Positions 1,456-36,226 of a stretch of 47,545 nt of DNA are shown piece after piece (the stretch's first letter is position 1; the number at the start of each line of letters is the position of its first letter). The DNA comes from Candidatus Scatovivens sp. (GTDB taxonomy: Bacteria > Bacillota > Clostridia > TANB77 > CAG-508): NCBI GenBank assembly GCA_045648625.1, contig JAZROJ010000002.1, positions 1 to 47,545 on the forward strand, read 5' to 3'. Under the pieces are notes generated by a model, which saw only the letters and a list, made by a program, of their open reading frames with translations, was not told the origin of the DNA and made no database searches. The position numbers and the translations under genes were made by a program.

Positions 1456-2505
1456 ATGAAAGAAAAAATTAAAGAAATTCAAAGAGATGCCGAAGAGAAT
1501 ATTGCAAAAATACAAAATTTGCAAGAATTGCAAGAATTAAAAGTAAAATTATTAGGTAAAAAAAGTGAACTTTCATCACTTTTAAAAGGACTTGGAGGGT
1601 TAACTCCAGAAGAAAGACCTATAATTGGAGGATTAGTAAATGAAGCAAGAAATCAAATTGAGGAAAAGCTTGCTGAGGCTGAAAAAGTTTTTAAAGAGAA
1701 AGCTATTTCAGAAAAGTTAGAAAAAGAAAAAATAGATATTACAATGCCTAGTGTAAAAATAAAAAGAGGAAGTAAACACCCTATAAATAGAGTTATAGAA
1801 GAGATTCAAGACCTATTTGTTTCTATGGGATATGATGTAATAGAAGGTCCAGAATTAGAAACAGATGAATTTTGTTTTGAAAGACTAAATCTTCCACAAG
1901 GACATCCTGCAAGAGATATGCAAGATAGTTTTTATATTACTAACGAATATTTATTAAGAACTCAAACTTCAGCAGTTCAAGCAAGAACAATGCTTGCAAA
2001 TGAAGAAAAATCTCCAATTCGTATGATTTGTACAGGTAAAACATATAGAAGAGAAGATGATGCAACACATTCTCATCAATTCAATCAAGTTGAAGGTTTA
2101 GTAATTGATAAAAAAGAAATGAATGTATCTTTAGCAGATTTAAAAGGAACTTTAGAAGTTTTTGTTAAAAAAATGATAGGAGCAAATTCAGAATTAAGAT
2201 TTAGACCAAGCTATTTTCCTTTTACAGAACCTTCTTATGAAGTAGATGTTACTTGCTTTAAATGTGGTGGAAAAGGTTGTCCACTTTGCAAAAAAACAGG
2301 TTGGATAGAAGTTTTAGGAGCTGGAATGGTACATCCTCATGTATTAGAAATGAATGGATATGACCCAGAAAAATATGCTGGATTTGCATTTGGTACAGGA
2401 ATTGACAGATTAGCAATGTTTAAATATGGAATCACAGATATGCGTTATTTATATACTAATGATGTGAGGTTTTTAAGTCAATTTGATAGAAAGGATGAAG
2501 AATAA
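1456..2505 (+). CDS. pheS: Phenylalanine--tRNA ligase alpha subunit
   Basis: RBS AAAGGAGG. Class II aaRS blocks ([43 protein letters not shown]). Preceded by a Phe T-box and followed by pheT. Confidence 0.97.
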
Positions 2506-2555
2506 TCTTGTAAAGATACTAATTTATTTACAAAATTAGATTTTGGAGGTAAGAA

Positions 2556-4922
2556 ATGATATTAAGTAAAAACTTTTTAAAAGACTATGTTGATATAGAT
2601 GTAGATGTAAAAACTTTAGCAGAAGATATGACTAGAGTTGGAAACGAATATGATAGTGCTGAAAAACTAATACCTAGTACAAAATTAATAATTGGTAAAG
2701 TATTAGAATGTGAAAATCATCCTGATTCTGACCATTTGCATGTTTGTAAAGTAGATATTGGAACAGAAGTATTGGATATTGTTTGTGGTGCACAAAATGT
2801 AAGAGCTGGAATTAAAGTTATTGTTGCACAAGTTGGAGCTGAACTTCCAGGAGATTTCAAAATAAAAAAAGGGATGATTAGAGGACAAGAATCTAATGGA
2901 ATGATATGTGCTTTATATGAAATTGGGCTTGACAAAAAATTCCTATCTGAAGAAGATAAAAATGGTATTCATATTTTGAGTGATGAAGCACCTGTTGGGG
3001 CAGATCCAATTGAATATTTAAAATTAAATGATGAAATAATCGATTTTGAACTTACAGCAAACAGAGGAGATTTATTAAGTATATTAGGAATGGCTTATGA
3101 AGTAGGAGCTATTTACGGAAAAGAAGTAAAAGAGCCAGTTCTATCACACAAAGAAGAAGGAGAAGACTTAAACAATAGTTTTTCAGTAAATGTAAATACT
3201 GATAATTGTAAATTGTTTTTAGCTAGAAAAGCTTTAAATGTAACTATTAAAGAAAGTCCAGATTTTATAAAAAATAGATTAATAGCTTTAGGAATAAGAC
3301 CAATTAACAATGTAGTAGATATTAGTAATTATGTTATGATGGAACTTGGGCAACCTTTACATTTTTATGATGCTGATAAATTAGAAAACTGTATAGAAAC
3401 AAGAATGGCCGAGCAAGGAGAAAAATTAACAACATTAGATGGTATAGAAAGAGAATTAGAAAATACTGATATAGTAATTTCAGATGGAAAAAGAGCTATA
3501 GGATTAGCTGGAGTTATGGGTGGTTTAGACACAGAAATCGTAGAAACAACAAAAAATGTATTAATAGAAGCAGCTATATTTGATTCTGTAAAAGTTAGAA
3601 AAACATCTAAAAAAATAATAAGAAGTGAAGCTAGCAATCGTTTTGAAAAAGGATTAGACCCAAATAGAACTTATATGGCTATGGCAAGAGCTGTTAAATT
3701 ATTAGAAGAATATGCCAGTGCTACAATTCAAACAGGAACTGTTGTATATGATAAAACTGATAAAACAGAAAAGAAAATAGATATTACAGTAAATGATATT
3801 AATACACTTTTAGGAACTTCAATAGAAAAAGAAGAAGTTTTAAATGTATTTAAAAAATTAGGATTTTCTTATTTAGTAGAACAAGAAAAAATTACTGTAA
3901 TAGTACCAACTAGAAGATTAGATATTTCTATAAAAGAAGATTTAATTGAAGAAGTTGGAAGAATTTATGGAGTAGATAATATTAAAGGAAAATTACCTAC
4001 AGTACCAATGAGAATGGGAAGTGTAAATAAAACAGAAAGAGGAATTAGAGATAAAATGGTTTCTCTAGGTTTAAATGAAACTTTATCTTATATATTAATT
4101 AATGATAAAGAAGTTCATAAATATACAAACGATTCATTTGAAGAGTTATCTTTATTAGATCCAATGACAGAAGATAGAAACACTTTAAGATATAGCTTAA
4201 TCCCTTCTTTATATAAAATTTATGAATACAATAAATCTCATTATACAAAAGATGTTTGTATATTTGAAATAGGAAAAGGTTTCTGGAAAAAAGAAGAAAT
4301 TTATGGTGAAGATACAAAATTATGTGGTTTAATGACTGGAGATTATTATTTAGGAATAGGAAATAAAAAACAAGTAGATTTCTATATAATAAAAGGAATA
4401 GTAGAAGAGGTATTAGATTATTTAGGATATGGAAATCGTTATAGTTTTGTATTACCAAAACAAAATTTAAAAGAATTCCATCCAGGTCAAGTAGCAGAAA
4501 TAAATGTTAATGGAGAAGTTCTAGGAGTGATTGGTAGAATTCATCCAGAAATTTCAAAAGAACCAGTATTTGTATTTGAAATAAACTTACAAAAATTATT
4601 AAATAAAAAAGTAAGTAAAATGAAATTTAAAGAAATTTCTATTTATCCTACAATTAAAAAAGATATAGCAATTATGTTAGATAAAAAGGTAACTTCAGAA
4701 GAAATTTCAAAAGTTATAAAAAAAGCAGGAGGAAACTTGTTAGTAGCTCAAGAAATGTTTGATATATATACTAGTGAAGTATTAGGAGACAAAAAAAGTG
4801 TTGCTTATTCATTAGCATTTGGTTCAAATACAAAAACTCTAACAGATGATGAAGTAAATCCTGTATTAGATAAAATAATTGAAGCATTAGAAAAATCATT
4901 AAATGCAGAATTAAGAAAATAA
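2556..4922 (+). CDS. pheT: Phenylalanine--tRNA ligase beta subunit
   Basis: 788 aa. N-terminal tRNA-binding domain (GKVLECENHPDSDHLHVCKVDIG), then B3/4 and B5 regions and a C-terminal FDX-ACB-like end. Starts 50 nt after pheS with RBS GGAGG. Confidence 0.97.
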   Translation: MILSKNFLKDYVDIDVDVKTLAEDMTRVGNEYDSAEKLIPSTKLIIGKVLECENHPDSDHLHVCKVDIGTEVLDIVCGAQNVRAGIKVIVAQVGAELPGDFKIKKGMIRGQESNGMICALYEIGLDKKFLSEEDKNGIHILSDEAPVGADPIEYLKLNDEIIDFELTANRGDLLSILGMAYEVGAIYGKEVKEPVLSHKEEGEDLNNSFSVNVNTDNCKLFLARKALNVTIKESPDFIKNRLIALGIRPINNVVDISNYVMMELGQPLHFYDADKLENCIETRMAEQGEKLTTLDGIERELENTDIVISDGKRAIGLAGVMGGLDTEIVETTKNVLIEAAIFDSVKVRKTSKKIIRSEASNRFEKGLDPNRTYMAMARAVKLLEEYASATIQTGTVVYDKTDKTEKKIDITVNDINTLLGTSIEKEEVLNVFKKLGFSYLVEQEKITVIVPTRRLDISIKEDLIEEVGRIYGVDNIKGKLPTVPMRMGSVNKTERGIRDKMVSLGLNETLSYILINDKEVHKYTNDSFEELSLLDPMTEDRNTLRYSLIPSLYKIYEYNKSHYTKDVCIFEIGKGFWKKEEIYGEDTKLCGLMTGDYYLGIGNKKQVDFYIIKGIVEEVLDYLGYGNRYSFVLPKQNLKEFHPGQVAEINVNGEVLGVIGRIHPEISKEPVFVFEINLQKLLNKKVSKMKFKEISIYPTIKKDIAIMLDKKVTSEEISKVIKKAGGNLLVAQEMFDIYTSEVLGDKKSVAYSLAFGSNTKTLTDDEVNPVLDKIIEALEKSLNAELRK

Positions 4923-4998: not shown

Positions 4999-5077
4999 GC
5001 TTTAGTTGTGCGTATTCCTAAACTAGAAATAGTAACAGGAATGCCTAAGCGAAAGTGCGCTTAGATTACGACTCTTT

Positions 5078-5590
5078 TTAGGACTGCGCCAGGGTATCCG
5101 TTATCCAAACATGGAGATATTTAGGGTTGCTCTTGCTTCTTCCAATTACGGCAACGACAAAACTCTTCGGGTCGACAACAAATTCTTTGTCGAAATACCA
5201 AGTGTCATCGTCAATAAACAGCGGCATGGTTTTGAATGCAAATAAGTCTTTGGATGATAATGTATGATTCTTAACTTTTTGCATAATCATAGTTGCTGTT
5301 GCTTTGGAACGAAGCATATCTGTCATCCGATGCTCAGGGACAATATGAACGACAATTTTTTCCGATTCCAGTTCTTTTTCCATCATTCGATTCAAAAGCT
5401 TATGGGCAATAGGATCTTTGGAGAAGAGTTCCGAGATTTTGGAGATATCTTCCTGGTCTGCAAATGTCTTCGGACCGATAATGTACCAGAAGCCAAGAAG
5501 ACTACGATCAGAAACCCACGAAGGCCTAGATTCCTTCTGCTGATACATAAACCGGATTGCGTCGTTTACCTGGGTGTTGATGTTTGCCAT
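5078..5590 (-). CDS. Hypothetical 170-aa protein, no family recognised, in a GC-rich insert
   Basis: RBS AGGAG 6 nt before the ATG, with its own consensus promoter (5673-5701). G+C is 54/120 = 45% in 5081-5200 (hand count), against low-to-mid 20s % in native genes. No TM segment or motif I recognise. Confidence 0.7.
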   Translation of the reverse strand: MANINTQVNDAIRFMYQQKESRPSWVSDRSLLGFWYIIGPKTFADQEDISKISELFSKDPIAHKLLNRMMEKELESEKIVVHIVPEHRMTDMLRSKATATMIMQKVKNHTLSSKDLFAFKTMPLFIDDDTWYFDKEFVVDPKSFVVAVIGRSKSNPKYLHVWITDTLAQS

Positions 5591-5672
5591 GATGTACTCC
5601 TAAAAAAATATAAAATTTGTATAGAGTCGTAGATTCCCAAGTAGGAACCAAAACTACTCAACATACTATTAT

Positions 5673-5701
5673 AGTATAGCACGATTGACATAAAATGTCA
5701 A
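5673..5701 (-). promoter_or_regulatory. Sigma-A promoter of the 170-aa gene; the -35 lies inside a perfect palindrome
   Basis: On the - strand: TTGACA (5701-5696), 17-nt spacer, TATACT (5678-5673). The -35 is one arm of TTGACAT-AAA-ATGTCAA (5685-5701). Confidence 0.6.
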
Positions 5702-5756
5702 ATTGCTAATCCTTACATATATTAAATATTCTATTTATTAGGAGATTTGTGATAAA

Positions 5757-5790
5757 ATGAAAAAGCATGGGAAGTCCCATGCTTTTGATA
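5757..5790 (-). terminator. Intrinsic (bidirectional-looking) terminator after the PfkB kinase gene
   Basis: Stem AAAAGCATGGG (5761-5771) / CCCATGCTTTT (5776-5786), 4-nt loop, A-run on one side and T-run on the other. Starts 8 nt past the kinase stop. Confidence 0.8.
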
Positions 5791-5797
5791 TTTTGCA

Positions 5798-6805
5798 TTA
5801 CCGATTGATATCTTCTGTGATACCCTTTTTGTGTTTTTGGATGATATTTTCAACTTCTGATTTGTTAGAAATTAAAATATCACCTGGAATGGTGCATTTT
5901 AAAGCTGAGAAAGCATCTCCATATTCTTGCGCAATTTGGCAAGAATAATTGAAATTAAGCAAGCCATAAAGTACACCAGCAATATAGGCATCACCACTAC
6001 CAACTCTATCTATAACATCAATATCATAAGGTTTAGAAGAGTGATAATATTTTTCTCCAAACTTTTGAAAAATAAGAGAAGAGAATTGGTGATGGCTTTG
6101 ATCAATAACTTTGCGTTTAGTGGAAACAATGTTTTGGATGTTATAAGTTTTCGAAAATTTTTTTAAAATTTCTTCATGTGTTCCTGTACATCTAAACATT
6201 TTCCTGCAAGTTTCTTCTGAAATAAAGAGAATGTCAACATAAGGTAAAATTTCCTCAATTGTTGCTTTAGCTTCTTCTTCACTCCAAAGATTGGCCCGAT
6301 AGTTTACATCAAAAGAGATTGTAGTATGACAAGCCGCAAAAGATTTTATCATCTCTATTGCGGTTTTTCGAGTGTTTTCACTTAAAGCAAGTGTTATGCC
6401 TGTTGTGTGAAAAATTCTCGCAGATGAAAAGAAATCAATTCCATAATCTGCAAGAGTGCTTTCAATAAAACTACTATTTCTTCTGTCATAAACCACAGAG
6501 GGGGTACGCGGGCGAGAGCCTTGTTCATAATAATAAGTTCCAACTCGCTGACCTCCATGTGCAATGAATTCTGTATTGATATTATACGAATTCAAAAAAT
6601 GTTCGACCCATCTGCCCATAGAATTGTCCGGAAGTTTTGTTATAATAGCTGTTTTGAGGTTTCCAATAGTGGAAATGGCAGCAGAAACATTAACTTCTGC
6701 TCCTCCTAAAGCCATTCTAAGCAAATCTGTCCTTTCAAGCCTCTCAAATGGGTTGTTAGGTTCGAACCGGATTAAGGGTTCTCCAAAGGTAATAACATCA
6801 TACAT
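5798..6805 (-). CDS. PfkB-family carbohydrate kinase (2-dehydro-3-deoxygluconokinase-like)
   Basis: 335 aa. N-terminal ITFGEPLIRF...GGAEVNVS and C-terminal DRVGSGDAYIAGVLYG (PfkB signature 2, GxGD). RBS AAGGAGG. Visibly GC-richer than its flanks. No partner sugar-acid genes adjacent. Confidence 0.85.
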   Translation of the reverse strand: MYDVITFGEPLIRFEPNNPFERLERTDLLRMALGGAEVNVSAAISTIGNLKTAIITKLPDNSMGRWVEHFLNSYNINTEFIAHGGQRVGTYYYEQGSRPRTPSVVYDRRNSSFIESTLADYGIDFFSSARIFHTTGITLALSENTRKTAIEMIKSFAACHTTISFDVNYRANLWSEEEAKATIEEILPYVDILFISEETCRKMFRCTGTHEEILKKFSKTYNIQNIVSTKRKVIDQSHHQFSSLIFQKFGEKYYHSSKPYDIDVIDRVGSGDAYIAGVLYGLLNFNYSCQIAQEYGDAFSALKCTIPGDILISNKSEVENIIQKHKKGITEDINR

Positions 6806-7075
6806 AAAGTACGCCTCCTTATTAGTATTTATTTAATGATGTTTGCAAAATATCTTTTTACCTCACTTATAATTTTTTGTGAGACAAAAGATTAAGCGTT
6901 GGTATTATATCAGGAAAAACTACTTTTTTCAATAGAATGTAAATACATAAAATCAAAATAAAACCTACAGATTGATTTTTTTGAATTTTAACTATATAAT
7001 AATCAAAAATTTAAAAGAAAGGGAGTAATCAATTAAATAGATTAATATTTCTAGATAACTGATTATACGAAAAAT

Positions 7076-10554: not shown

Positions 10555-11850
10555 ATGGCTAAAAACCAAGAAAGAATTGTTAAATGTTCATTTTGTGGCA
10601 AACCACAAGAAATAGTAAAAAAAATAATTGCAGGTCCAGGAGTATATATTTGTGATGAATGTGTTACATTATGCCAAGATATCATAGATGAAGAAGTTTA
10701 TGATATTCAAGAGCCAGTTACAGAACAAGAAGAAATGCCAACACCTGCAGAAATAAAAAAAGTATTAGATGATTATGTAATAGGTCAAGAAGAAGCTAAA
10801 AAGACATTATCAGTTGCAGTGTACAATCATTATAAAAGAATTAACAATCTAGACTTAATTGATGATATAGAAATACAAAAAAGCAATATATTATTATTAG
10901 GTCCAACAGGATGTGGAAAAACTTTATTAGCTCAAACTTTAGCAAAAACACTAGATGTTCCTTTTGCTATAGCAGATGCAACAACATTAACAGAAGCAGG
11001 TTATGTAGGAGAAGACGTAGAAAATATTCTTTTAAAATTAATTCAATCTGCAGATTATGATGTTGAAAAAGCTCAAAAAGGAATAATATATATTGATGAA
11101 ATTGATAAAATTACTAGAAAATCTGAAAATCCATCTATTACAAGAGATGTTAGTGGAGAAGGAGTACAACAAGCTTTACTAAAAATAGTAGAAGGAACAG
11201 TTGCTTCTGTACCACCACAAGGAGGAAGAAAACATCCACATCAAGAATTTATACAAATAGATACTTCAAACATTTTATTTATATGTGGAGGAGCTTTTGA
11301 AGGATTAGATAATATCATAAAAGATAGAACTGGTAAGAAAACAATAGGTTTTGGAGCCAAAATAGAAGGTAAATCTGAGGAAAATAGAACTGAAATTTTA
11401 AAACAATTATTACCACAAGATTTATTAAAATTTGGATTAATACCAGAATTTGTCGGAAGATTACCAATAGTTGCAACACTTGAGGCGCTTACTAAAGAAG
11501 CTTTAATAGATATTGTGACAAAACCTAAAAATGCTTTAGTAAAACAATATAAAAAATTGTTTGAATTAGATGGAGTAGAGTTAGAATTTGAGCAAGAAGC
11601 TTTAGAAAAAATCGTTGATAAAGCTATAGAAAGAAATACTGGAGCAAGAGGCTTACGTTCTATTATAGAAGAAATTATGAGAGATGTTATGTATGATATT
11701 CCATCAAATCATAAAATTGCAAAATGTACAATTACAAAAGAGACTGTTGAGAATAAACAACAACCAGAAGTTGTAATTGATGAAACTAGACAAAAAGAAA
11801 ATGTAAGACCTAAAAGAAAAGTTAAAAACAAAAAGCAAGAAACTGCTTAA
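10555..11850 (+). CDS. clpX: ATP-dependent Clp protease ATP-binding subunit ClpX
   Basis: N-terminal C4 zinc finger (CSFCGK...CDEC), Walker A GPTGCGKT, Walker [10 protein letters not shown], sensor GARGLR. Confidence 0.97.
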
Positions 11851-11980: not shown

Positions 11981-12076
11981 AAAAGTGTGTATTTAGTATA
12001 AAAAATATAAGAACAATAAATTTTACAATTTTTGAAACTTAAAAAATAATAATTGAAAGAAAAAGGAGAACTAAAG

Positions 12077-14176
12077 ATGTTGCAAGAGAATGAAAGAAGA
12101 TTGCAAGAAGAATTAGAAAGCTTAGAGAATTTAGAAAAATTAAGTATAGAAAATTCAGTAAATGATAAAAAAGCAAATTATAAAGCGCGAAAAAGAAGAA
12201 TAAGAGTAGCATTTACAAAAGTAAGTTTAATGGCAATGCTATTAATATTATCAACATATGCATGGTTTACAACTCAAAAAGATATTTCTATTTCAAACTT
12301 AAGAGGAACAGTAGAAGTAGCAGAAAATATGGAAATATCTCTAGATGCAAAAACTTGGAGTCAAGAAATAGATTTAAAAGAAGCATCAAGTAAATTTGCA
12401 ACAGCCCAAACAACAAGACAAAATGCATTTAAAATAAGCCCAACAGATACAACAACAGATGATTATATAACAAGAGCAGGAGCAATTTTACCAAAAGAAT
12501 TATTACCAGTATCAACAGCAGCAGAAAAAGATATAACAGGGTCATGGGTAGATGGTGCAACAACAAATACATATTCAATAATGCCATTTTATGAAGGAAA
12601 AGCAACAGGAACATCATTATCAGAAATAGCAATGTGTAAAGAATATAACGAAGATGACGAAGTAATGGAAGACAATGGATATTTTGCATTTGATATATAC
12701 ATAAGAAATACATCACAAGATGGAGCAGATGATAAATTACAATTAAACATAAATTCAGCAGTACAAGTGCTAGCAAATAATATAACAAATCCAATGCCAG
12801 GGCAAACAAATGAAATAATAAATAAAGTAGTAAATGGAACAAATAGAGAATATAAAGGAAATGAAGATTCAGGACTACAAAATACAGTAAGAGTAGCACT
12901 AGCATTATATGGAGAAAAACAAGCAGATGGAACATTAAATGGACTAGCAAGTGCAACAGCAACCCAAAAAGAAATATTAACAGCAACAAAAGATGCGACA
13001 ATAACAGATATAGCAATATGGGAACCAAATGCATATGACCACGTAGAATACATAGTAAACAATAATAATAAATTAACAGATGGAAGTGGAGCAAAAACAG
13101 ACGAACAATTAAAATTTGACCACGGAGAAGCAGTAGAAACATATGGCTTAAAAAGCACAGCAATAGGAACAACAATAGAAAATGTGTATGATATAGCAAC
13201 AACAGGACTAGATAATCCAAGCACATTTAAAACAGATAATAATAAAGATGCAAGCACAGGAAAAGTAACATCATATAGAATAAAAACAACAAACAATAAA
13301 CCAATAAATATAACAAGCATAGATAGTACAGAAGCAGCTACAGATTATTTTATGCTAACATCAAATACAGTAAGTAGATTAAGAGTATATATCTGGTTAG
13401 AAGGCCAAGATGTAGACTGTATAAACCAAGCATCATATGGTGGAGGTATAGAAGTAGACTTAGGACTAACAAAAGATGACTTTGTAGGAGAATCTGGAGA
13501 AGGAATAGAAAATAATACACCAGTAGCAGGAGCAACATTAGCATCAGCAAGAAATACCGATATAGGAGATTATATAGATTTAGGTGGAACAAGTTATGTA
13601 GGAACATCTAGTACAGCAGATGATTGGAGAATATTCTATGTAGATGAAGATAATGATAAAGTATATGCAATATTAGCAGATTACTTACCAGCAATATATG
13701 TACCAACAATAACCGGTTTAAGTAAAGATAAAGACACATATACTTATAGTGTATGGTCAGATGGCGATGCATATGCATTAGCAGAAGCGTTAGATGGAAC
13801 AACAGATGGAGATGCATGGAATTTCTTAGCGAATGGATATAGTACAGAAGTAACTGGAAGTCCAACAGGAGAACTGTTAAATTTAAGCTATAAAGCCAAA
13901 GAAAATCTTACAAATTATGACTATAAAAATAATTTAACACTAAATGGAGATTTATACGCACCTCACACAGAAGAGATAGATAATGGATCAAATACTTGCT
14001 TGGGCTATTGGTTGGCTTCAACTGATGACGATAGCTTCCTGTGGATTGTGTACTATGGTTGCTGTCTGGACCCCTCTTACTGTGGCGATAAGTATTATGG
14101 CTGCCGTCCCGTAGTTTCTCTGTCATCTGGAATCCTTGCAACTGAAGAAGATGATGTATGGACATTATCGAAATAG
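12077..14176 (+). CDS. Large secreted/surface protein: charged N-terminal extension, SipW(TasA/camelysin)-type signal-anchor, DUF1566/C-type-lectin-like C-terminus
   Basis: Start moved to ATG 12077 (RBS AAAGGAG 12062-12068). A ~45-aa coiled, charged leader is followed by KRRIRVAFTKVSLMAMLLILSTYAWFTTQKD, which matches the T-x-A-x-F-(T/S)-D class of SipW-dependent signals. The Thr/Asn/Ala-rich body has no enzyme motif I recognise. The C-terminus is YWLAST...LWIV..G...K...CRPVVSL. Confidence 0.75.
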   Translation: MLQENERRLQEELESLENLEKLSIENSVNDKKANYKARKRRIRVAFTKVSLMAMLLILSTYAWFTTQKDISISNLRGTVEVAENMEISLDAKTWSQEIDLKEASSKFATAQTTRQNAFKISPTDTTTDDYITRAGAILPKELLPVSTAAEKDITGSWVDGATTNTYSIMPFYEGKATGTSLSEIAMCKEYNEDDEVMEDNGYFAFDIYIRNTSQDGADDKLQLNINSAVQVLANNITNPMPGQTNEIINKVVNGTNREYKGNEDSGLQNTVRVALALYGEKQADGTLNGLASATATQKEILTATKDATITDIAIWEPNAYDHVEYIVNNNNKLTDGSGAKTDEQLKFDHGEAVETYGLKSTAIGTTIENVYDIATTGLDNPSTFKTDNNKDASTGKVTSYRIKTTNNKPINITSIDSTEAATDYFMLTSNTVSRLRVYIWLEGQDVDCINQASYGGGIEVDLGLTKDDFVGESGEGIENNTPVAGATLASARNTDIGDYIDLGGTSYVGTSSTADDWRIFYVDEDNDKVYAILADYLPAIYVPTITGLSKDKDTYTYSVWSDGDAYALAEALDGTTDGDAWNFLANGYSTEVTGSPTGELLNLSYKAKENLTNYDYKNNLTLNGDLYAPHTEEIDNGSNTCLGYWLASTDDDSFLWIVYYGCCLDPSYCGDKYYGCRPVVSLSSGILATEEDDVWTLSK
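13997..14130 (+). other. Candidate diversity-generating-retroelement variable region (VR) at the 3' end of the surface-protein gene
   Basis: A content is 19/134 = 14% here, against 83/180 = 46% in 12602-12781 of the same gene (hand counts). The codons are almost all NNY (gat gac gat agc ttc ... tac tat ggt tgc tgt ... gac ccc tct tac tgt ggc gat). The protein motif is YWLAST-x5-LWIV-x2-G-x10-K-x3-CRPVV. No TR or RT in the window. Confidence 0.45.
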
Positions 14177-14216: not shown

Positions 14217-14253
14217 AGAGAGCCTTTAGGCATTAAGTCCTAATAGGCTCTCT
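14217..14253. terminator. Bidirectional terminator shared by the convergent surface-protein and pseudouridine-synthase genes
   Basis: AGAGAGCCT (14217-14225) / AGGCTCTCT (14245-14253). The right arm overlaps the stop codon of the - strand gene. Confidence 0.65.
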
Positions 14254-15142
14254 AAAATTTATTCAAAATTTCTTTCATATCTTCAGATAAATCAATTTCA
14301 AGTGTTAAATTGTTATGAGAAATAGGATGGATAAAAGAAACCTTATATGCGTGTAGAGCTTGTCTAGAAATTAAATTTGAAGTATTACCATATAAAGAAT
14401 CTCCTAATATAGGGTGGCCTATATGCTTAGAATGTACACGAATTTGATGAGTTCTACCGGTTTTAAGAGTAAATTCTACTAAAGAAAGTTTTTGATTACC
14501 AATTTCAAATTTTTTTATTAAATTATAATGTGTAACAGAATAATCACCATTAATAGAAATTTCTCTTTCTATTATAGAATTTTCTTTTCTAGCAATAGGA
14601 GCATTAATAGTTCCTGTGTTATTTTCTAAGTGCCCTTCTAAAATTGCAATATACTTCTTTATGTAGTCATTTTGTTTCATTTGACGTATTAAGGATTCTT
14701 GAACATATTCATTTTTAGCAAAAATAACAATTCCAGAAGTATCTTTATCTAAGCGATTAACAGGTCTAATTTTTCTTTTGATATTTTTTCCTTTAAAATA
14801 ATAAGCTATACCATTTGAAAGACTATCTTCATAATGTAAGATAGATGGATGAACTGGTAGATTATAAGGTTTATTAATCATAAGTAAATATTCATCTTCA
14901 AAAATTATATTTAAATCCATTTCTTTAGGAAGAATATTTTCAGATTCTTCTTCAAAATCAATATCAACTTCAATAATATCATTTAAATGTATTTGTGCTG
15001 TAACATAAACTTTTTCTCTATTTAAAAATATTCTTTGCTCATTTTTTAATCTCGATAAAAGTCTATTTGAAATTTGAAAATGTGAGATAAGAACTTGTTT
15101 TACAGTTTGATAATTATTGTCTAAAACTTTATATTTTAACAT
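14252..15142 (-). CDS. RluA-family 23S rRNA pseudouridine synthase (RluD-like)
   Basis: S4-like N-terminus, catalytic-Asp block NRLDKDTSGIVIFAK, GRTHQIRVH. Confidence 0.9.
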   Translation of the reverse strand: MLKYKVLDNNYQTVKQVLISHFQISNRLLSRLKNEQRIFLNREKVYVTAQIHLNDIIEVDIDFEEESENILPKEMDLNIIFEDEYLLMINKPYNLPVHPSILHYEDSLSNGIAYYFKGKNIKRKIRPVNRLDKDTSGIVIFAKNEYVQESLIRQMKQNDYIKKYIAILEGHLENNTGTINAPIARKENSIIEREISINGDYSVTHYNLIKKFEIGNQKLSLVEFTLKTGRTHQIRVHSKHIGHPILGDSLYGNTSNLISRQALHAYKVSFIHPISHNNLTLEIDLSEDMKEILNKF

Positions 15143-17880: not shown

Positions 17881-18357
17881 ATGCGAAACCAAAAATATAT
17901 AGAAGAAATATTAGAAAAATATTCAGATATGGTATATAGAATAGCATTAACAAGAACTGGAACAGTAGAAAATGCAGAAGATATATATCAAGAAGTTTTT
18001 ACAAAATTTAGTGAAAAAATGCCAAACTTTGAAAGTGAAGAACATGAAAAAGCTTGGTTTATAAGAATTACAATTAATTTAAGCAAAAATTTAAAATCAT
18101 CTGCTTGGAACAAAAGAATAGTAAATTTGGATGAAAATATTGAATTTAACACTCAAGAAGAAAGCAATGTATTTACAACTGTTTGTGAATTACCTCAAAA
18201 TTACAAAACGGTAATTTATTTAATGTATTATGAAGGATACAAGGTTAAAGAAATTGCAAATATTATGCAAAAAAGAGAAGGAACAATAAAAACCTGGCTT
18301 TTTAGAGCAAGAGATATTTTAAAAGAAAAATTAGAAGGAGGATTTGAAAATGAATAA
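17881..18357 (+). CDS. ECF-subfamily RNA polymerase sigma-70 factor
   Basis: 158 aa. Region 2 (AEDIYQEVFTKF...AWFIRITIN) and region 4 HTH (KVKEIANIMQKREGTIKTWLFRAR). RBS AGGAGG. Confidence 0.9.
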   Translation: MRNQKYIEEILEKYSDMVYRIALTRTGTVENAEDIYQEVFTKFSEKMPNFESEEHEKAWFIRITINLSKNLKSSAWNKRIVNLDENIEFNTQEESNVFTTVCELPQNYKTVIYLMYYEGYKVKEIANIMQKREGTIKTWLFRARDILKEKLEGGFENE

Positions 18358-35919: not shown

Positions 35920-35925
35920 AAAAAT

Positions 35926-36226
35926 GCGTTGATGAGGAAAAGTAACTTTAAAATTCATATCAGTGAGTTGGGTATAGTGTGAACCAATTATGGATTTATT
36001 GTGAAAGAACACCTCGGAGCAAACTACCGAAAGATATTTTTAGTAGGCTAGTTCGGAAGCAAACCGTTATCTAATTGCTATGCTTGTTAGAGCAGAAAAA
36101 GAGATTACTAAAAACACATCTCATTTTTTTATAAAAGAGATTTTTATATATTTGTTTAGTAATAATTTAAGGTGGCACCGCGGATACCCGTATTCGTCCT
36201 TATTGTAGGATGATACGGGTATTTTT
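35926..36226 (+). promoter_or_regulatory. T-box leader (tRNA-Asn sensing) with terminator
   Basis: GTGAAAG-AAC-A (specifier AAC 36008-36010 followed by a purine). T-box motif AATTTAAGGTGGCACCGCGG (36165-36183). Terminator ATACCCGTAT (36184-36193) / ATACGGGTAT (36213-36222) plus a T-run. Confidence 0.85.

Follow-up and report, generated by a model that had tools for sequence, protein, structure and literature searches.

How does a gene in the A-rich genome of the uncultured gut clostridium Candidatus Scatovivens sp. come to end in a block that is poor in A and almost half G+C? The gene in question (the target gene, positions 12053 to 14176 on the forward strand) lies on a 47,545-nt stretch of contig JAZROJ010000002.1, referred to here as the window. 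A sequence-only reading of the window had taken the 3′ end of this gene for the variable region (VR) of a diversity-generating retroelement (DGR) on a DUF1566-like or C-type-lectin-like scaffold. The codon usage of the block, its counterparts in related genomes, and its divergence from the closest orthologue make it very probable that the block is a DGR VR and that the gene is a remote or orphaned target. Below, loci of related genomes carry L numbers and homologous proteins carry P numbers.

The proposed course of events would be as follows. The target gene would encode a membrane-anchored protein with a lectin-like domain of the DUF6273 type, on which the VR would be exposed in the form of a beta-hairpin flanked by loops. 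A template repeat (TR) would be transcribed, and a dedicated reverse transcriptase (RT), here probably acting together with bAvd and a MutS-like accessory protein, would copy it to cDNA, misincorporating opposite template adenines; the cDNA would then replace the VR, guided by common 5′ homology and a recipient-specific 3′ flank. With misincorporation at template adenines, AAY codons could become any of ∼15 residues, and A-free scaffold codons would stay fixed.

Composition and codon usage of the A-poor block

The A-depleted, G+C-enriched block, delimited by composition counts and codon simulation, occupies positions 13997 to 14130 on the forward strand and contains 19 A residues in 134 nt (14.2%) at a G+C content of 49%, compared to 42% A and 28% G+C in the whole window. 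Upstream, in the body of the same gene, A accounts for 83 of 180 nt (46%) at positions 12602 to 12781, and immediately 3′ of the block (14131 to 14176) it is back to 39%. Across the 47.5 kb, 134-nt windows with an A content of 16% or less start only at positions 13991 to 14006. The block is translated as CLGYWLASTDDDSFLWIVYYGCCLDPSYCGDKYYGCRPVVSL. The A counts, the translation, and the listed codons of the NNY type (ending in C or T) of the sequence-only reading were all reproduced.

Such a skew might need no special mechanism if it arose from the Cys/Tyr/Gly/Asp-rich composition of the loops, local codon selection, or chance, and the amino acid composition alone does lower the expected number of A residues from ∼57 to ∼33 in 135 nt. 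Codon choice was therefore simulated by fixing the 45 residues of the in-frame block (13997 to 14131, 135 nt) and redrawing their codons 20,000 times from the window's own usage. The block has 20 A residues (33.5±2.4 expected), 4 of them in third codon positions (15.5±2.3 expected), and 66 G or C residues (46.4±2.1 expected), and none of these values was reached in any of the 20,000 simulations. Codons ending in C or T make up 32 of the 45, with an NNC:NNT ratio of 14:18, which, set against 11% NNC in the genes of the window, is an approximately four-fold NNC enrichment (P = 3.6e-6). The block is also the unique A minimum of the window, and P0004 (L001), a homologue with the same fusion of domains, uses ordinary, A-rich codons for this domain (A, 0.34 to 0.41), so the domain itself does not force A depletion; another fused homologue, P0003 (L002), has an intermediate depletion (A, 0.24 to 0.31). 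An origin of the skew in composition, codon selection, or chance is effectively refuted by these data and retains hardly any credibility.

DGR cassettes and template-variable region pairs in related genomes

A scan of species-representative genomes with the flanks TGGTTGGCTTC and CGTCC..T.GTTT returned 42 loci. Approximately 30 of these belong to uncultured Clostridia with 26 to 32% G+C, sampled from goat ileum, rabbit, mouse, chicken, and Hadza humans; in them, the block between TGGTTGGCTTC and CGTCC has an A content of 0.12 to 0.30, as opposed to 0.36 to 0.45 for the locus. The remaining loci, in G+C-richer genomes, translate to unrelated or stop-containing sequences and were treated as unrelated. 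The protein alignment of the family is conserved except between GYWLAS and RPVVSL, and at this same spot in homologous genes of AT-rich organisms, the A content falls to 0.18 to 0.22 and the G+C content rises to ∼0.5.

All VR-type blocks were compared with all fetched loci in search of a partner whose mismatches involve adenines only, and this revealed a TR in L043, which comes from a goat-ileum metagenome-assembled genome. This locus carries a target gene (95 to 949) with its VR at 806 to 920, an accessory gene with a MutS domain I (MutS_I; 1141 to 1575, E = 1e-9), bAvd (E = 4.3e-11, which passes the Pfam cutoff), a TR rich in AAC (1933 to 2044, ...GCTAACAACGCTAACAACGTGATGAATGTGAACTACAACGGCAATGTTAACAACAACAACTATAACAAC...), and, on the strand opposite to the TR, an RT (2380 to 3335; RVT_1, E = 3.6e-13) with the motif YVRYQDD that is split into two open reading frames (ORFs). 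The VR of L031a, which lies on another contig of the same genome, differs from the L043 TR at 21 of 112 positions, all of them TR adenines and all in codon positions 1 and 2; two further VRs show 19 to 21 A mismatches to this TR plus 6 to 8 others. In the L043 genome, a single TR is accompanied by VR-type blocks on four contigs, at least 6 in all; 3 of the blocks are close to the TR and the other three are more than 12 non-A mismatches away from it. This dispersal over several contigs means that remote targets do occur in the clade. Through an RT-based metagenome scan, pairs of the same type were also found in L051, L049, and L120, and further TRs in L080, L048, L053, and L054-57. A second cassette, in L021, is decayed and retains Avd and RT only as fragments.

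The templates of these relatives are rich in AAC and AAT, in agreement with the AAY template codons that the sequence-only reading had postulated. Their A content is ∼0.33, and they avoid A in the third codon position apart from a shared GTA codon, so the VRs, including that of the window, have few A residues, synonymous sites included, and many NNC codons. A hypothetical template of genome-like composition with all its A residues randomized predicts the observed base composition almost exactly; this match was rejected as a coincidence, given the A content and third-position preferences of the real clade templates. Blocks of the VR type that break the reading frame were seen in L030 (3376 to 3491, 116 nt), L036 (1626 to 1741, 116 nt), and L041 (7357 to 7469, 113 nt) and represent either pseudogenized targets or misassembly of a hypervariable stretch.

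These relatives also provide the means to evaluate a scenario that involves no retroelement, namely, that gene conversion or horizontal transfer replaced a short segment of the domain with one from a homologue of a G+C-richer organism. A block of 49% G+C with sharp edges in a genome of 28% G+C is what such a recombination patch should look like, and the window contains neither a TR nor an RT. However, the same sharply bounded block is found in the same place in ∼30 AT-rich genomes, where the identifiable sources are intragenomic AAC-rich TRs with adenine-only differences, and the sole G+C-richer matches to the flank pattern are those that translate to unrelated or stop-containing sequences. 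In addition, the block mirrors the clade TRs in its surplus of NNY codons and in having almost no A at third positions. Taking both sides into account, a recombination patch appears very unlikely.

Limits of the probable variable region and its divergence from the closest orthologue

The VR does lie within the limits of 13997 to 14130 that were initially proposed for it, although the VR proper, as delimited by homology with TR/VR pairs of the related DGRs, is slightly narrower (14009 to 14114 on the forward strand, 106 nt; TGGTTGGCTTC ... CGTCCCGTAG). It shares the anchors TGGTTGGCTTC ... CGTCC..TAG and its place in the domain with the VRs of L043, L031, L051, L049, and L120, whose TRs differ from them in an adenine-specific manner. 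The hypervariable core comprises 22 codons, TDDDSFLWIVYYGCCLDPSYCG. In a DGR-aware alignment with the clade TRs, the window VR scored 75, compared to 41±8 for 200 codon-shuffled versions used as controls (maximum, 68.5).

The 3′ flank of the VR (TTTCTCTGTCATCTGGAATCC, 14115 to 14135 on the forward strand) was examined in a listing of flanks of VRs versus TRs. In the window, GTAG is followed by TTTCTCTGTCATCTGG, which is close to the family VR consensus of GTAG followed by TTT(C/G)TCTAC(C/A)ATCT and unlike the TR flanks, in which GTAG is followed by (C/A)TTCT.AAAAA. Positions 14115 to 14135 would thus be in the right place for a recipient-marking element of the initiation-of-mutagenic-homing type, but their conservation may also stem from the encoded VVSLPSS sequence. 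The DGR of the Bordetella phage has a hairpin/cruciform downstream of its VR; a search for a conserved structure of this kind revealed no consistent element across ∼30 VRs and none after the window VR.

The protein database contains the target gene product as P0001, a form of 699 aa with an ATG start at position 12077 that is 100% identical to the product encoded in the window. Its only close orthologue, P0002, which was compared as a protein, is 78% identical overall and has identical flanks (GYWLAS and DKYYGCRPVVSLSS). In the gapped alignment of the two proteins, identity over 22 residues is lowest in the variable core (3 of 22 residues). Read by eye without gaps, the cores are equal in length and match at 1 of 22 residues; the probability of no more than one match in 22 at 78% identity is 3e-13. 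A frameshift relative to P0002 was also considered as the origin of the block but was rejected after reading the other two frames by eye, neither of which resembles P0002. Accordingly, the original proposal of a DGR VR draws support from a position homologous to the VRs of proven targets, the A-poor and NNY-rich signature, the conserved flanks, and the wholesale difference from a close orthologue. The block was presumably written from a TR elsewhere in the same genome, which would make the target gene a remote one.

Search for a cognate template and signs of ongoing diversification

Several lines of evidence weigh against this interpretation, either as such or as a description of a currently active system. 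No TR was detected in the window by an ungapped scan that allowed mismatches only at candidate A residues or by blastn with 7-nt words; the best in-window candidate has 28 non-A mismatches in 134 nt. Nor did tblastn with the clade proteins reveal an RT, Avd, or MutS-like gene in the window, where a profile built from 30 DGR RTs gave a best E value of 0.16 (positive control, 1e-78); the initial statement that both the TR and the RT are missing from this stretch was thus upheld. A strict A-only pattern for the cognate template of 14009 to 14114 (TGGTTGGCTTCAAMWRAWRAMRAWARMWWMMWRWRRAWWRWRWAMWAWRRWWRMWRWMWRRAMMMMWMWWAMWRWRRMRAWAARWAWWAWRRMWRMCGTCCNGTAG), in which each non-A base X of the VR was recoded as {X, A} over 106 nt, had 0 matches in viral contigs and 0 in metagenome contigs, collections without the source genome, and did not pick up the VR itself either. 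The clade TRs show at least 17 non-A mismatches to the window VR, which is also two codons shorter than the L043-type TR, so no sampled clade TR is the template of the window VR. The sequence DKYYGC, with its A-bearing codons, is identical in P0001 and P0002, which is unexpected under free mutagenesis. Finally, eight clusters at 90% identity (P0121, P0129, P0145, P0137, P0148, P0159, P0141, and P0126), each with 3 to 11 near-full-length strain-level variants, have 2 variable alignment columns inside the VR windows and 211 outside; at the outside rate, these counts would lead one to expect ∼27 inside.

The RT-based metagenome scan yielded 80 loci with several same-clade templates, none of them cognate to the window VR. 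A pattern for the 3′ end of the template had 7 matches in viral contigs, which were read as chance since no upstream stretch was TR-like; this search gave no sign of a phage-borne clade.

With VRs that are nearly invariant within the 90% clusters, the A-poor block is no proof of ongoing diversification. The VR DNA is identical in three assemblies of one species, and orthologue pairs that are >95% identical elsewhere have a VR identity of 100%, whereas the VR identity is 14 to 47% in many orthologue pairs that are 85 to 93% identical elsewhere. Judging from these comparisons, rewriting in the relatives is rare and saltatory at the level of consensus sequences, and the fixed VRs look selectively maintained. 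As for the window, its signature indicates that the block was written by a DGR and carries no indication that rewriting continues.

The target may be a fossil: an ancestral DGR would have written the block, its cassette would since have been lost or inactivated, and the VR would now be a fixed binding site under purifying selection. As a sub-case of the DGR interpretation, this scenario differs from it only with respect to present activity. It accommodates the lack of a cassette in the 47.5 kb, the decay of cassettes in relatives (the split RT of L043 and the truncated Avd and RT of L021), the VRs that are frozen in strain-level clusters and identical between the three assemblies, and the collapse of VR identity only between orthologues that are 85 to 93% identical elsewhere. 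It is at odds with the A content of the window block (0.14 to 0.16), which is similar to that of VRs perfectly matching a resident TR (0.13 to 0.15) and argues, qualitatively, for a recent event; likewise, in qualitative terms, a long-orphaned block in a genome of 28% G+C should drift to A and T at synonymous sites, and the fused homologues are either intermediate (L002) or without depletion (L001). We regard an orphaned VR as a real possibility that falls somewhat short of an even chance. For the other state that a DGR-written VR could be in, service in trans by a TR and an RT elsewhere in the genome, the chances are about even.

A broader scenario, which we put forward tentatively and consider rather doubtful, is that this AT-rich lineage of gut Clostridia runs its chromosomal MutS-like/Avd DGRs in a “write rarely, then keep” mode. 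Many dispersed targets would depend on a single cassette; they would include pilin-like proteins and, here, a conserved membrane-anchored protein to which the domain is, unusually, fused. VRs would be replaced wholesale at speciation-scale intervals and would change less than the remainder of the protein thereafter. Under this scenario, A-poor VR blocks in genomes would for the most part be end-products of selection and not active diversifiers, and the target gene would represent a new display scaffold for a DGR-tuned lectin.

Fold and family of the C-terminal domain

The VR is located near the end of a C-terminal DUF6273-like (C-type-lectin-like) domain encoded by positions 13535 to 14173 on the forward strand, which was recognized from AlphaFold2 modeling, matches in BFVD and PDB, and the Pfam matches of its family. 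The model of this 228-aa domain has a predicted local distance difference test score (pLDDT) of 91.9 and a predicted template modeling (TM) score of 0.88, and its best BFVD matches are phage DUF6273 proteins (E = 5.7e-5 to 1.9e-4, probability 1.0, TM score of ∼0.5), so that modeling of the C-terminal part bore out the expected lectin-like fold. As in DUF6273, the modeled domain is a lectin-like globule and has its variable hairpin close to the C terminus. In PDB, only weak matches were found, to the Thomasclavelia IgA peptidase (9qa6) and to the C-terminal domain of the Legionella protein Lcl (8q4e). The latter, a DUF1566 protein, gave a Foldseek probability of 0.90, a TM score of 0.54 on the target, and an E value of 2.6e-2, and the DUF1566 proteins in BFVD matched with E values of 4e-3 or weaker. 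The assignment to a DUF1566/C-type lectin scaffold thus stands at the level of the fold, but DUF6273 is closer, and neither the window protein nor its family has a Pfam match to DUF1566.

The window protein has no Pfam match at an E value of ≤1 and is thus below the gathering score of DUF6273 (PF19789). Because its own sequence lacks such a match, its membership in DUF6273 comes from transitive homology and fold only: the homologues P0128 and P0123 pass PF19789 with 29 to 30 bits (cutoff, 23.5), and 19 of the 63 aligned family members match it (E ≤ 0.01). On the evidence of the model, the scaffold is a divergent DUF6273-type domain, with DUF1566/Lcl as a weaker structural neighbor. DUF6273 is a published C-type-lectin-like target of DGRs in which the VR is located at the C-terminal end (PMC11792537, PMC10743442).

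The C-terminal domain has ∼70 homologues of its own, most of them proteins of ∼390 aa from gut metagenomes. The prepilin N-terminal methylation motif is present at the start of 10 of 63 such homologues (P0123, P0128, and 8 others), which means that the DGR-varied lectin-like domain is often carried by pilin-like proteins in these Clostridia.

Remainder of the target protein and its genomic neighborhood

In the ORF list, the target gene encodes 707 aa from a TTG codon at 12053. After ∼50 charged residues, the translation shows a hydrophobic N-terminal anchor (RKRRIRVAFTK-VSLMAMLLILSTYAWF, 12206 to 12268 on the forward strand), and residues 2 to 65 form a single long helix in the AlphaFold2 model. 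The hydrophobic stretch VSLMAMLLILSTYAWF probably serves as a signal anchor that places the remainder of the protein outside the cell. It is followed by a beta-rich N-terminal domain of ∼420 aa (12269 to 13489 on the forward strand) that belongs to a widespread family of roughly 400-aa proteins; the STYAWFT motif of the target protein is invariant across the family. This domain has no Pfam or NCBIfam match, and its AlphaFold2 model (pLDDT, 81.5) has no PDB neighbor at an E value of ≤0.001. Most of the 517 homologues of P0001 span only ∼62% of the query, and the C-terminal lectin-like extension is found in only a few members of the N-terminal family (P0002, P0003, P0004, P0006, and P0016, the last of which is truncated ahead of the VR). 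The gene that follows clpX in L005 was considered as a homologue of the N-terminal domain, which was not supported by tblastn.

The target gene is found in a housekeeping setting, with rsmF, tig, clpP, and clpX (10555 to 11850) upstream and a convergent gene for an RluD-like pseudouridine synthase (14252 to 15142, minus strand), along with thiF, downstream; clpX and the RluD-like gene were identified by Pfam matches. Between the two convergent genes there is an inverted repeat, AGAGAGCCTTTAGG-CATTAAGT-CCTAATAGGCTCTCT (14217 to 14253), which a consensus scan did not call a terminator because it lacks a T run.

Several features elsewhere in the window deserve mention. A stretch at positions 5050 to 6850 has 32 to 41% G+C in surroundings of ∼25% and carries the minus-strand ORFs 5078 to 5590 (170 aa) and 5798 to 6805; the 170-aa ORF has no Pfam or PHROG match, and the stretch may be a foreign island. 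T-box leaders were detected on the forward strand at 1117 to 1346 and 35920 to 36204, with 112.6 and 98.8 bits, respectively, above the Rfam gathering score; no tRNA genes were found in the window. The product of the forward-strand gene at 18344 to 20350 has 668 aa and contains a Beta_propel domain in full length (E = 3e-163); this gene directly follows one for an extracytoplasmic function (ECF)-type sigma factor (17881 to 18357).

Significance and comparison with known systems

If the DGR interpretation is correct, the target gene encodes a likely ligand-binding, fast-evolving surface determinant of an uncultured lineage of gut Clostridia, with 22 residues identified as those that would set its specificity. 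It would also illustrate that a DGR target can be recognized from a single contig by composition alone, with the cassette elsewhere. For DGR surveys, these data suggest some caution, as the A-poor signature persists where the VR no longer varies between strains and marks past rewriting rather than continuing rewriting. The mechanism, the DUF6273 domain family, the cassettes of the MutS-like (MSL) type, and remote targets have all been published, so the gain consists of a catalogue entry and its context. A modest added interest derives from the fusion of the lectin-like domain to an uncharacterized membrane-anchored protein and from clade VRs that appear frozen after rewriting.

Among characterized proteins, the C-terminal domain of Legionella pneumophila Lcl (8q4e; DUF1566) is a weak but consistent structural neighbor and shares a motif of the YW..S ... 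RPV type. It differs in that the window domain has no sequence-level match to DUF1566, DUF6273 being closer.

The Treponema denticola DGR (TvpA; PMC4891356, PMC5758913) has one TR and several targets far from the RT, and, as in the present comparison, the VR is at the C terminus of a surface protein with a C-type lectin fold. The TR/VR pairs of T. denticola, unlike the window VR, have been demonstrated within one genome. The accessory gene of that system is reportedly HRDC, and its lectin-fold subfamily is said to be a different one.

With respect to cassette organization, the closest parallel is provided by the MSL-containing DGRs, described as “Architecture D” by Wu et al. in 2018 (PMC5758913), which include the Legionella DGR. 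The L043 cassette is of this architecture: it combines a gene for a MutS domain I protein with avd, a TR, and an RT, these parts being spread over both strands, and it is not associated with a phage and has several dispersed targets. This likeness is that of L043, which belongs to an organism other than that of the window.

In terms of domain type, the window gene resembles the DUF6273 targets of Faecalibacterium prophages (Lelie, CP11, Roos, and Pioen) and the “tentaclin” targets nd4 and nd12 (PMC11792537, PMC10743442). In the Faecalibacterium prophage targets, as in the window gene, DUF6273 ends in the VR at its C-terminal side. Other common features are a lectin-like globule that bears the VR as a looped beta-hairpin and AAY-rich TRs, which in the present case are those of the relatives. 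The Faecalibacterium and tentaclin targets serve phages as receptor-binding or tail proteins, and their cassette lies within the same prophage. The window gene, by contrast, is chromosomal, lies between clpX and rluD, and has no cassette within 47.5 kb. Its DUF6273-like domain, with a sequence below the Pfam threshold, also differs from those of the phage targets in being fused to a membrane-anchored cellular protein.

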